A DNA stretch of 64,000 nt, taken from the NCBI GenBank assembly GCA_023898385.1, contig CP060220.1, positions 1,676,993 to 1,740,992 on the forward strand, given 5' to 3'. Position 1 is the stretch's first letter. Every line of letters begins with the position of its first letter. Position numbers and translations under genes: made by a program. Positions 2,372 through 11,525 of the stretch are shown piece by piece. Source of the DNA: Pseudobdellovibrionaceae bacterium (GTDB lineage: Bacteria; Bdellovibrionota; Bdellovibrionia; Bdellovibrionales; UBA1609). The notes beneath the pieces were generated by a model. That model had not been told where the DNA came from. It did no database searches and was given only the letters and a program-made list of their open reading frames with translations.

Positions 2372-3337
2372 TTAGCACAGCGTTTCGTCCTCTGGCCAGC
2401 CCGACCTGCCCTGCTGAAAAAAATTGATGATTTTATCCACGGCCATATCCGATGCCCGCCATTGGGCCTCATGGGTGTACGCCCCAATGTGTGGAGTCAT
2501 GACCACTTGCGGAAAGTCACGCAGCCGAGATCCCGGTGCCAGCGGCTCCTTGACGAATACATCTAATCCCGCACCGGCAAGGCGTTGCTCGTCTAGTGCA
2601 TCAATCAAGTCATTCTCATTCACCACCCGGCCTCGGCTAGCGTTGATCAAAACGGCATCAGCGGCAAAATAAGCCAAGGTCTGCCGGTTAATCAATTCTC
2701 GGGTCTCGTCAGTCAATGGCACATGCAGACTCACCACTTGCGCCTGACGCAGTAGCTCCATAAGTCCGCAACTCTCCACGCCTAGCCGTTCAAAATGACT
2801 CTCTGAAACATAGGGATCGTAGGCCACCACGTGCATATAAAAAGCCTTCGCAAGCTCTGACACTCGCGACCCAATTCGCCCAAGCCCTACAATGCCCAAT
2901 GTCTTTCCCGCAAGTTCATGGCCCACAGAAACCGACGACCGCCATTGTTTCTTGTTTATGGCAACCGCTGCCATCTGCGCCTTTCGCAAAACAGAAAGTA
3001 TCAACCAGATGGTTAGTTCGGCCGCACTTTCGGGATTAGCCATGGGAACAAACCCCACCTGCACGCGATGCTCTTTACAATGTCCTAAATCGATATGATC
3101 AAACCCACTGGTGGCCGTGACCACAACCTTTAACTCTGGAAACTGTTTTAATATTTCTGCATCAACGACCGTACCTGAACGAATTAAAAGGGCCGCCACA
3201 TCTGGACGCTCTCCCACTAAACACGAAGGTTCACATTTTTCTATAATCATCTCTGGAAGCGAAATCTTCAGCCTCGTCAGTGATTCAGCCGTATAGGGGG
3301 CCGCGACCAAAATAGTTTTAACCGGAGGGCTTATCAC
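2372..3337 (-). CDS. D-isomer-specific 2-hydroxyacid dehydrogenase, probably a short-form D-3-phosphoglycerate dehydrogenase
   Basis: NAD-binding motif GIVGLGRIGSRV, plus LINASRGRVV and MTPHIGAYT. It directly follows an aminotransferase gene with no spacer, which resembles a serine-pathway pairing. Confidence 0.8.
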   Translation of the reverse strand: MISPPVKTILVAAPYTAESLTRLKISLPEMIIEKCEPSCLVGERPDVAALLIRSGTVVDAEILKQFPELKVVVTATSGFDHIDLGHCKEHRVQVGFVPMANPESAAELTIWLILSVLRKAQMAAVAINKKQWRSSVSVGHELAGKTLGIVGLGRIGSRVSELAKAFYMHVVAYDPYVSESHFERLGVESCGLMELLRQAQVVSLHVPLTDETRELINRQTLAYFAADAVLINASRGRVVNENDLIDALDEQRLAGAGLDVFVKEPLAPGSRLRDFPQVVMTPHIGAYTHEAQWRASDMAVDKIINFFQQGRSGWPEDETLC

Positions 3338-9371: not shown

Positions 9372-9402
9372 ATGCGGACGTACTTGTGGCGCCGTAGTTT
9401 TG
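9372..9402 (+). repeat. 31-bp direct repeat, copy 1 (ATGCGGACGTACTTGTGGCGCCGTAGTTTTG)
   Basis: Identical 31-mer at 11300-11330. The flanks outside the repeat are unrelated. Confidence 0.9.
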
Positions 9403-9596
9403 ATTAAATTTTGCTAGTGATTGTGAATACTCCCGCCTGTGAAGTGTAGACCCGCCACGGCAAGCCAAAGAGAAAAAGTATTTTGCCTCCCCGAAAAAAT
9501 AGATCGAAAAGTAGTGCTTCTTGTCCAATTTGGTTTTCGCAAATATTTCTATTCCACTTCAACATTTGGAAAATTTCTTTTTGATACAACGCCCGG

Positions 9597-10958
9597 TCAT
9601 ATACAATAAAGAGGCAGGCTTTTTAGGCGAAAGGTTACCGACTCATGCGATCCCTGCCAACGGTAGGACACGGTTTCTTCAAGCTGAGTGCGAAACTTTA
9701 AATCATAGCGAATCGCTTGATCCGTGACCTTCTGATGTTCACCCATAAACCGAATCAATGACTTCAGGCTACCGGCTTTTCCAGACTTGATCTCCACAGG
9801 AACCACTTTGTTGTCCATAGGGAGTACAAAATCCACCTCTGCGTTCTCAGGTACCTTATCCCGCAACCAGTAGTAGGTATTTGTTTTTTGTGTCTTAAAG
9901 CTATCTAGATAAAGGTGCTGGGCAGCAAATTGCTCCGCCATGTCGCCTTTGCTAAGAAGCAGATCGGGACTTAGCTCAGCGAGCTCAGACCACTTAAGGC
10001 CCATGAGACAATTATATAAACCTACATCCAGAAAAAATGTCTTAAAGACATTTCGATCTCCGGTTTTGCTTAACGGTAAGCCTGAACAGTTTGAATGAAA
10101 AACCTTTTGGGCCAAAAAGATACCCTCAAAAATGTCCAAGGCTTCCTTAATATACGGTGTTTTTGCTCGTGATAGGCGCGAATAAATTGTTTTTTTGCCT
10201 ATCTCGTAAGGCAATGAATTGAGTACATCGTGCAAGACCTCGCCTTGTTTGCCTGAAGCATACCGCTCAATGTCTTCATGGTAGGACTGCAACAAGTGTT
10301 GCTGCAGCTCACGGGCCGCCACATAGCTCCCATTGCTTTGATTAAAAGCCACTATGGCCTCCGGCATTCCACCCACAAAGAAAAAATCGGTCAGCTGTTT
10401 GACTAGCTCATTATGAATGGACTCGGTCAGTGCCGCAAAATCGCCTTGCCTGAACTGGTCAACAAATTCTGCCAATACATTTTTGCCCCTTGCCTTCAAA
10501 AACTCGTCGAAGGTGAACGGTCCAATGTAAAGATATTCTACTCGGCCCACCGGCGCTTTCAATTTCAATTGCCGCAGCACCACTTCAAGCAGGCTACCGG
10601 CAGCAATCACCGGCAATTCTGGTTTCTTTTCTTTGAAAAAACGCAGCCTGCTATAAGCTTTTTGGCTCTCTTGAATCTCATCAATAAATACTAATGAATT
10701 GGATTTAAGCTTCTTGTTTGCCACAGCCATAATTTCGTTTAGGCAACGATCTACATCGAACGAATCTTGATCGAACTCACTTATGAAGCTTTCCTCTAGG
10801 TTCACCTCCACAAGGTCTAGACCATTCACCGCAGCAAATTGCCTCACCAATTCTGTTTTGCCGACCTGCCGGGCACCCCGAATCACCAAGGGCTTACGCG
10901 AGGCCTTGATGTGCCAATCATTTAGGTGTTGAAGAGCTCCTCGCGCCAGGTAATTCAT
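9597..10958 (-). CDS. COG1373-type AAA+ ATPase with a C-terminal DUF4143 / PD-(D/E)xK-like domain
   Basis: Walker A GARQVGKT, Walker B LVFIDEIQ, and a C-terminal D-x(n)-E-x-K motif (VDFVLP...VPVEIKSGK). I prefer the start at MNYLARG (10958). The listed 11033 start would run into the tandem repeats. Confidence 0.8.
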   Translation of the reverse strand: MNYLARGALQHLNDWHIKASRKPLVIRGARQVGKTELVRQFAAVNGLDLVEVNLEESFISEFDQDSFDVDRCLNEIMAVANKKLKSNSLVFIDEIQESQKAYSRLRFFKEKKPELPVIAAGSLLEVVLRQLKLKAPVGRVEYLYIGPFTFDEFLKARGKNVLAEFVDQFRQGDFAALTESIHNELVKQLTDFFFVGGMPEAIVAFNQSNGSYVAARELQQHLLQSYHEDIERYASGKQGEVLHDVLNSLPYEIGKKTIYSRLSRAKTPYIKEALDIFEGIFLAQKVFHSNCSGLPLSKTGDRNVFKTFFLDVGLYNCLMGLKWSELAELSPDLLLSKGDMAEQFAAQHLYLDSFKTQKTNTYYWLRDKVPENAEVDFVLPMDNKVVPVEIKSGKAGSLKSLIRFMGEHQKVTDQAIRYDLKFRTQLEETVSYRWQGSHESVTFRLKSLPLYCI

Positions 10959-10996
10959 AAAATCCTCTTGTCTATTAACTACTTCATAGACATTAT

Positions 10997-11124
10997 GACG
11001 AAATACCGACCTGTTTTCAACATTTTTGGACAAAATACCGACCTGTTTTCACTATTTTTGCTAAAAAGCCGACCTATTTTAAGGTTTTTTTGTCAAAATT
11101 CCGACCTATTTGCTGTTGCTCAAA
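10997..11124. repeat. four tandem ~32-bp repeats (iteron-like) with core CCGACCT
   Basis: The units begin at 10997, 11029, 11061 and 11093. The CCGACCT cores are at 11006, 11038, 11069 and 11101 (spacing 32, 31, 32). The first two units are nearly identical: GAC(G/A)AAATACCGACCTGTTTTCA(A/C)(C/T)ATTTTTG. Confidence 0.85.
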
Positions 11125-11299
11125 GGTATCGGTAAGATAAACCAAGCCGTCGCAATTTATCTTGCTGGATATTTTCGGCATTTTTGGCAGGTCAATTCAA
11201 TTAGCGGCGAACATCGGGACATTTTTCTTAGAGCTACGAGTTGTATACGCCAAAAGATTTTGATTGAAATTTAGCAATCCACACGCGATGGCAATCTTG

Positions 11300-11330
11300 A
11301 TGCGGACGTACTTGTGGCGCCGTAGTTTTG
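11300..11330 (+). repeat. 31-bp direct repeat, copy 2
   Basis: Exact copy of 9372-9402. Confidence 0.9.
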
Positions 11331-11525
11331 TCGACATTTTTTAAGCCCTTTGATGGTCTTTTTTTTAGGAGGTCATGAATGACATTCAGAAAATACAACG
11401 GGCTTCCCCTAAAAACACTAGGGTGAGGATGTCGCGGTTAAATTTAGGTAACAGTATCGCTGTAAAACAACAGAGCCAGACAAAATTGTCTTAAAATAAG
11501 ACGATTCTGCCCACAAATACTAAAT

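Follow-up and report, generated by a model that had tools for sequence, protein, structure and literature searches.

The repeat array and its gene

We analysed a 64,000-nucleotide stretch of the chromosome of a Pseudobdellovibrionaceae bacterium (contig CP060220.1, positions 1,676,993 to 1,740,992), referred to throughout as the window. On its minus strand, at 9597–10958, lies a gene for a 453-amino-acid ATPase-nuclease, and just upstream of that gene, on the same strand at 10991–11115, stand four phased direct repeats. Repeats and gene together are bracketed by a 31-bp direct repeat, and the question pursued here is what the upstream array does for the gene that it precedes.

Pfam recognizes two domains in the gene product above their cut-offs, AAA_14 (PF13173; E 2.7e-21, residues 21–154) and DUF4143 (PF13635; E 1.6e-25, residues 228–393), the second of which has been classed as PD-(D/E)XK (PMC3424549), and PADLOC matches it to PDC-S01 (model PDLC04788; E 4.4e-123) over residues 4–452, against profile positions 2–433 of 448. 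The window protein is a full-length member of this AAA_14 plus DUF4143 family (COG1373), which is single-gene, patchy and horizontally mobile. PDC-S01 is a candidate for phage defence and is reported to rank fourth in frequency among the candidate defence genes of prokaryotes, with 29,494 bacterial and 9,986 archaeal instances (PMC12988326). Otherwise the NCBIfam and Pfam searches yielded only a sub-threshold match to ATPase_2; NCBIfam assigned the product to no family and PHROGs held no match to it.

An AlphaFold2 model of the protein (predicted local distance difference test score (pLDDT) 86.7, predicted template modelling score (pTM) 0.87) is divided into an AAA+ domain (residues 1–160), a lid, a winged helix (~236–310) and a PD-(D/E)xK nuclease-like domain (~340–420). 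The modelled winged helix has the canonical topology alpha1-beta-alpha2-alpha3-beta-wing-beta at 236–309, with the recognition helix at 267–279. The nuclease-like catalytic residues are E342, D376, E389 and K391; these and the Walker A and B motifs are conserved at 97–100% in 101 relatives, in which G28, G33, K34, [ST]35, D93 and E94 are invariant. Among solved structures the closest folds are SSO1545, ORC4/5, Orc1/Cdc6 and RuvB, all of them AAA+ proteins with a winged helix (Foldseek matches to 2fna, E 8e-8, to ORC subunits and to 2qby/1w5t). A profile search of the PDB sequences found neither an initiator nor a relative, the best match being HslU at E 0.0014.

A repeat search of the window returned four copies with start-to-start distances of 32, 31 and 32 bp, and Tandem Repeats Finder reports a period of 32 with 3.7 copies and 79% matches at 10996–11111. 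The core CCGACCT (AGGTCGG on the gene strand) begins at 11006, 11038, 11069 and 11101, which reproduces exactly the positions and spacing given in a preliminary description of this DNA. In the register used in this analysis, set by the family consensus described below, the units run on the minus strand from 11020 to 10991 (u1), 11052 to 11023 (u2), 11083 to 11054 (u3) and 11115 to 11086 (u4), and all four align with that consensus at offset 0. The unit pattern on the gene strand is AAAAYA-GGTCGG-nWTTTy-GnCAn: u1 to u3 read AAAAYA-GGTCGG-(T/C)(A/T)TT(T/C)-, and u4, which departs from the AAAAYA frame by one base, reads CAAATA-GGTCGG-AATTTT. The two units nearest the gene are 91% identical to each other, whereas first and third share 66% identity, in line with the earlier remark that the proximal pair is nearly identical and the distal units degenerate. 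The 12-mer AAAAYAGGTCGG, allowing at most one mismatch, matches the window four times, always within the array, where 0.66 matches are expected; four matches were reached in 1 of 100 shuffles. The preliminary description had proposed a genome-wide search for further arrays, and a search with the repeat word found paired units at no other site in the 3,330,855-bp genome.

The start of the gene settles whether the repeats are coding. The ATG at 10958–10956 is preceded, at a distance of 4 nt, by the Shine-Dalgarno-like sequence AAGAGGA (10963–10969, minus strand), which is of the AAAGAGGA type, and all 80 relatives compared begin to align at residues 1–12 of the 453-residue product. This excludes the TTG at 11033 as the start, and with it a coding N-terminal extension, and the repeats are non-coding; the start at 10958 thus stands, and the possibility raised earlier that the repeats merely encode a low-complexity N-terminus does not hold.

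Upstream of the gene there is a single good sigma-70-like site: a −35 hexamer TTGAAA (11020–11015), a 17-bp spacer and a −10 hexamer CATAAT (10997–10992), with 10 of 12 consensus matches. This predicted promoter (10992–11020, minus strand) falls within the array: its spacer holds the proximal core (11006–11012), and three units stand further upstream. Transcription would then start near 10985 and leave a leader of ~27 nt. This placement is at odds with the preliminary description, in which the array formed part of the gene's leader, downstream of a −10-like element CCGATAC at 11126–11132; that element obtained no score in the promoter scan. The array does lie between the putative −10 at 11126–11132 and the start codon, and every unit has a weak internal dyad (AAAACA ... 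TRTTTT), as might be expected if the repeats acted as RNA, within a 5′ leader that is structured or bound by protein and whose promoter lies further upstream. We consider this very improbable. The 166-nt stretch has no unusual folding energy (z = −0.96, with 38 of 200 shuffles folding at least as well), and in Rfam there is only a noise match to lysM-TM7 (23.6 bits, where the gathering score is 61.5; E 0.34); on these grounds an RNA element was rejected. Moreover, the best promoter is within the array, and many relatives have a −10-like box directly against the last unit, 6–8 nt before the ATG, an arrangement from which the mRNAs would be leaderless.

Recurrence and transfer of the arrays

To follow the array through the family we scored the best self-match in the 200 nt upstream of each relative, with a 20-nt window and lags of 8–60. 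The best lag was 32–34 bp at 54 of 83 genome loci drawn from many phyla, 47 of 71 metagenome loci, 19 of 24 non-redundant viral-contig loci and 39 of 61 non-redundant loci of the same phylum, that is, in 159 of 239 relatives over four independent sets, compared with ~5% in controls. For the genome set, in which control lags of 31–35 were counted, the controls gave 4/78 (downstream), 6/86 (coding) and 5/73 (far upstream); for the later sets, at lags of 32–34, they gave 3/72 (downstream) and 2/78, 3/24 and 2/63 (coding). About two-thirds of the relatives, across phyla, therefore keep a phased array, and the possibility raised in the preliminary description that orthologues lack the repeats does not hold.

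The 135 arrays that could be compared contain two, three, four, five and six units at 86, 35, 10, 2 and 2 loci, respectively, and in a set of 94 arrays 104 of the spacings measured 33 bp and 28 measured 32 bp. Their consensus is TAAAAYAACCTTGTATTTTnnCCA, in which a frame, TAAAAYA-core-TATTTT-nnCCA, surrounds a core of 6–7 nt that differs from gene to gene. The commonest core is (A/T/G)CCTTG, many variants are private, and that of the window gene is GGTCGG. The orientation of the array relative to the gene is constant across loci, and the same frame is found in Bacteroidota, Spirochaetota, Acidobacteriota, Omnitrophota and Proteobacteria; the array has been transferred between phyla together with its gene. 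The best relative (locus L017; 55% identity, from another family of the order) has an array of three units spaced 32 bp apart, whose core, GAWAACAGGYCRTAWAT, is related. The ATPase relatives also include 55 on IMG/VR viral contigs (L187–L241), and since 19 of the 24 non-redundant viral-contig loci have an array, the cassette evidently also rides on phages or prophages.

One locus (L099) has a second three-unit array, with 33-bp spacing and a nearly identical word (AAAATTRCCYTGTAYTTT), ~1211–1145 nt upstream of the gene start and 1.1 kb beyond the array that belongs to the gene itself. A second full gene would not fit into the interval on that strand, and the second array may be the remnant of a truncated tandem copy.

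The gene is also far from solitary in its own genome. Where the preliminary description spoke of a lone chromosomal ATPase, in front of which such an array would be unusual, the genome encodes 16 full-length DUF4143 paralogues and one fragment, and phased arrays are the rule in the subfamily. At 11 of the 16 paralogues an inverted or direct repeat between −130 and +20 of the start exceeds the 95th percentile of random windows, and the words differ between all of them. The closest paralogue (36% identity; genome positions 1487667–1488992) has three units at 33 bp with the core TAACCCCTAAAA. Several paralogues of ~390 amino acids have instead a palindrome whose left arm holds the −35 (TTGACC) and whose right arm holds the ATG, in the geometry TTGACC-17-TAGAAT-8-ATG, which looks leaderless. 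These palindromic paralogues lie at genome positions 362187, 3010342, 3314720, 1371013, 2947234 and 2376137, all on the forward strand; the right arm covers the start codon (ATGGTCAA) and the −10 is in the loop, 8 nt before the ATG. The layout suggests leaderless mRNAs and an operator of dimer type.

Duplications around the cassette

The direct repeat that brackets array and gene has its upstream copy, in gene orientation, at 11300–11330 and its downstream copy at 9372–9402, 194 nt past the stop codon; the copies agree at 31 of 31 positions and, over 41 nt, at 90%. Brackets of this kind are found at 10 of the 16 paralogues (15 to ~94 bp) compared with 8 of 300 random controls at a threshold of at least 14 bp, and at 19 of 157 relatives compared with none of 781 mismatched-flank controls, with lengths of 14–94 bp over relatives and paralogues. 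The bracketed space holds no gene besides the ATPase, only the array and the promoter, and where both features are present the array is inside the bracket in nine of ten cases; at locus L079 the cassette starts 91 nt before the ATG. The exception, from a metagenome (L135), has a 56-bp duplication that overlaps the array and runs from −104 to −48 before the start, with its other copy +12 after the stop. Further bracketed paralogues lie at genome positions 152567, 362187, 3010342, 1371013, 3314720, 1488992, 1972509 and 2281025. At 3010342 the host gene upstream apparently has its 3′ end within the 94-bp duplication, and only 43 nt separate the beginning of the cassette from the ATG.

We take the bracket at the window locus to be a probable target duplication. 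A search of 40 relatives for the empty site, that is, for the joined flanks of the 31-bp bracket, found none. The distribution of the gene is patchy: it is present in 50 of 401 genomes of the phylum, and it has no match at E 1e-40 or better in 24 genomes of the same family.

The genome contains about ten copies of the duplicated word (CAAAACTACGGCGCnACAAG...), located in the 5′ part of HNH-like open reading frames, with copies near 3049, 87212, 511200, 1510740, 1510974, 1665955, 1666072 and 3079586 as well as at 9372–9412 and 11300–11340 of the window. These reading frames, which read KTTAQQGGLR...IPQSIKRLVYHRDQGRC, look like a family resembling HNH endonucleases, and some copies are in tandem, 117–234 bp apart. 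As the word belongs to a small sequence family, the target of the insertion was probably a decayed member of that family.

Brackets of this sort raise the possibility that the cassette uses the array as a cis-acting site in its movement, with the ATPase-nuclease recognizing one end of the element as a transposase would and promoting insertion with long target duplications. The frequency of brackets far above controls, the enclosure of the array in nearly all of them and the lack of a recombinase in the cassette are in keeping with such a role. The array, however, is one-sided: in 49 loci neither direct nor inverted copies of the unit turned up outside it, whether at the 3′ end of the gene or in any other part, and a transposon-like layout with repeats at both cassette ends was accordingly rejected. 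In addition, the distance between array and duplication varies from ~20 to more than 300 nt (~185 nt here), whereas the position of the array follows the promoter and the start codon. Insertion with long target duplication has been described for restriction-modification units (Furuta, Abe and Kobayashi 2010, PMC2853133), which resemble the present cassettes in having no recombinase and long, variable direct duplications of local sequence; they differ in that the cargo here is a single ATPase-nuclease gene with its operator and that the duplication at the window locus is inferred. Because those units show the same insertion without arrays, the duplication footprint requires no end site encoded by the element, and we regard a role of the array in movement as improbable.

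Covariation and a proposed self-operator

If the encoded protein reads the repeat, residues that contact DNA should change together with the bases of the unit. We examined 101 non-redundant proteins (<85% identity) with well-registered arrays, over 266 variable columns in a reduced amino-acid alphabet. The six top columns by corrected mutual information fall into two clusters: 266, 269 and 268, paired with unit positions 23–24, and 372, 370 and 369, paired with unit positions 12–15. The first cluster is the N-terminus of the recognition helix of the winged helix and the second is the loop just before the catalytic E374-x-D376 strand. The highest corrected value was 0.40, compared with a maximum of 0.28 in 100 label shuffles. 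The same helix columns also led in subsets of 49 and 82 proteins; plain mutual information on the 49 proteins gave noise, and on the 82 proteins, where the corrected score favoured the helix, the tree-aware test had just three independent pairs and gained its informative value with the set of 101.

Sign tests on a tree built without the tested columns, with p-values to be read as indicative only, gave for K/R266 with C23 9.5 in the same direction compared with 0.7 in the other (14 pairs, median p 0.012), for R268 with C24 6.3 compared with 0 (8 pairs, median p 0.031), for D/E269 with C24 6.8 compared with 1.5 (13 pairs, median p 0.125) and for G370 with A15 5.2 compared with 0.4 (14 pairs, median p 0.07). 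An arginine or lysine facing a G:C pair is a standard major-groove contact. The window protein fits the pattern, with K266 accompanied by C23 in all four units and P268 by A24 in three of them. The covariation points to candidate DNA-reading residues in the recognition helix and in the nuclease-domain loop.

The covariation also bears on whether a component of the host reads the repeats, as tandem weak promoters, as UP-like A-tracts for RNA polymerase or as phased sites for a nucleoid protein on intrinsically curved DNA. The units do carry −10-like (TAAAAT, TATTTT) and −35-like (TTGTAT, TTGnCn) hexamers at fixed offsets; in CCTTGT-type arrays the TTGTAT of one unit stands 17 bp from the TAAAAT of the next, and A/T tracts recur, as read from the sequence, at roughly helical spacing. 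A host reader nevertheless fits poorly with cores that are specific to the gene, such that paralogues in one cell carry different words, and with a frame that persists in phyla whose promoter types differ. Nor would a host factor cause variable bases to covary with residues of the encoded protein, and we judge this explanation quite improbable.

The reader of the array is better sought in the cassette itself. The word is private to the gene, different words coexist among the paralogues of one cell, the array travels with the gene and the bracket encloses nothing else; for these reasons we propose that the binder is the cassette's own protein. The reading that we favour, at a probability of roughly 60%, is that the array is the operator of the ATPase-nuclease, placed over its promoter, and that the protein limits its own expression. 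We infer that the protein binds the repeats, that it does so cooperatively across three helical turns, that the predicted promoter is the one affected and that the effect is repression, by occlusion of that promoter.

In this self-operator model each unit of ~23 bp would be bipartite. A frame common to the family, AAAAYA...TATTTT, surrounds a gene-specific core (GGTCGG here, CCTTGT most commonly), and a second variable sub-site of GTCCA type would lie one helical turn downstream of the core. Residues 266–269 of the recognition helix would read the downstream sub-site, and the loop at 369–372 in the PD-(D/E)xK domain would probably read the core. A spacing of 32–33 bp, three helical turns, would set the protomers on one face of the DNA, where their AAA+ modules could interact and bind cooperatively. 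As the proximal unit fills the spacer between −35 and −10, its occupancy should shut the promoter, repression being the presumed sign rather than activation. A potentially toxic nuclease would in this way be kept low and buffered wherever the one-gene cassette lands.

Several points weigh against this model. About a third of the relatives have no array by the present criterion. The residue and base classes for the sign tests were picked after the tables had been viewed; the tests were several, and none on the nuclease loop reaches 0.05 (p 0.07–0.45). A nuclease domain seated on the core would need protection from cutting its own promoter, which the model leaves unexplained. The promoter is a consensus match in AT-rich DNA, where the scan gave 2 sites compared with 4.4 in shuffles, and the unit itself holds −10-like and −35-like hexamers. 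Because it does, the placement of the promoter does not generalize across loci, and no constant offset of the promoter from the proximal unit could be assigned.

The same recurrence and covariation would be seen if the array were a platform for docking or assembly, on which an ordered oligomer is parked as a standby or sensor complex, or as a mark of 'self', to be released or activated by foreign DNA or a phage factor, with autoregulation as a by-product. The near-complete conservation of the Walker and nuclease residues implies that the protein is more than a repressor, the distal units extend ~95 bp past the promoter, beyond what simple occlusion needs, and the fold is like that of ORC/Cdc6-type proteins, which assemble on repeated sites. 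Parking does not require, however, that the proximal unit regularly overlap or abut the core promoter or the start, which regulation predicts; the commonest array has just two units (86 of 135), and in E. coli B one representative of PDC-S01 did not protect against T4, T5 or T7 (10.1101/2024.09.26.614923). We therefore hold a parking platform to be unlikely.

A bolder proposal, which we regard as doubtful, takes the operator as a read-out of the protein's recognition code. The protein would be an ATP-dependent, sequence-specific nuclease that sets loop 369–372 on the core and residues 266–269 on the sub-site and assembles on copies of its word phased three turns apart; the copy at the promoter would serve self-control, and the real target would be foreign DNA in which that word is repeated in phase, such as the iteron-type origins of plasmids or phages. 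If this were true, one could predict what any of the family's tens of thousands of members targets from the DNA just upstream of its gene.

With the self-operator model in mind, the array can be set beside known systems. In plasmid iterons, such as those in the autorepression of P1 RepA, F RepE and pPS10 RepA, phased repeats that overlap a promoter are read by the winged-helix protein of the adjacent gene. The window array is like them in having phased direct repeats over the proposed binder's own promoter, with autoregulation. It differs in its period (32–33 bp, or three turns, rather than ~22 bp), in its setting within a chromosomal one-gene cassette and in its binder, an AAA+ ATPase fused to a nuclease rather than a Rep_3-type protein; the gene is not of Rep type. 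No DnaA boxes or other origin features turned up at the array, although no search was aimed at such features. The preliminary description had compared the array with those of iteron-binding Rep or partition proteins and of cooperative repressors. The repeats have the character of phased sites for an iteron-type or cooperative binder, and relatives keep a non-coding array, but a Rep or partition function finds no support: Pfam finds just AAA_14 and DUF4143, and the anatomy of the locus gives no pointer to an origin.

Orc1/Cdc6 with its ORB elements and DnaA with its DnaA boxes, including the autoregulation of dnaA, likewise have repeated sites next to their own genes. Orc1/Cdc6 shares with the window protein the AAA+, lid and winged-helix architecture and is among its nearest solved folds. 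There is, however, no match to a solved initiator at the level of sequence, the window protein has an additional PD-(D/E)xK domain with intact catalytic residues, its many paralogues have private words and nothing ties it to replication.

In the controller (C) proteins of restriction-modification systems and in toxin-antitoxin operators, a mobile and dangerous unit carries its own operator and limits its own expression, the logic that we propose for the window cassette. Their operators are pairs of palindromes, whereas here there are two to six phased direct repeats and regulator and effector are apparently one polypeptide; many of the ~390-residue paralogues of this genome do use palindromes.

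An autoregulatory operator array is thus of a known kind; what is new is the proposed binder, which joins AAA+, winged-helix and nuclease domains, together with a 33-bp geometry, bipartite units and a private code. The published work consulted handles PDC-S01/DUF4143 only as a gene family (10.1101/2024.01.29.577857, PMC12988326, PMC3424549), and these three sources make no mention of upstream repeat arrays or of DNA specificity; a literature search for an autoregulated AAA+/winged-helix/nuclease protein with direct repeats found nothing. PDC-S01 is common yet without known ligand, target or phenotype, and the array provides the first concrete and cheap hypothesis on what it binds. Private words would explain how many paralogues, 16 in this genome, coexist in one cell. 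An anonymous family becomes testable in this way, and a one-gene mobile cassette could bring control of its own expression into any host.

Elsewhere in the genome, five copies of a stretch of at least 170 bp (gcccgggcgaagaagcgcaagtccc...), identical over the part compared, lie at 676290, 1754443, 2490448, 2838307 and 3321696; they represent a multi-copy element, which may be an insertion sequence or belong to a repeated operon.

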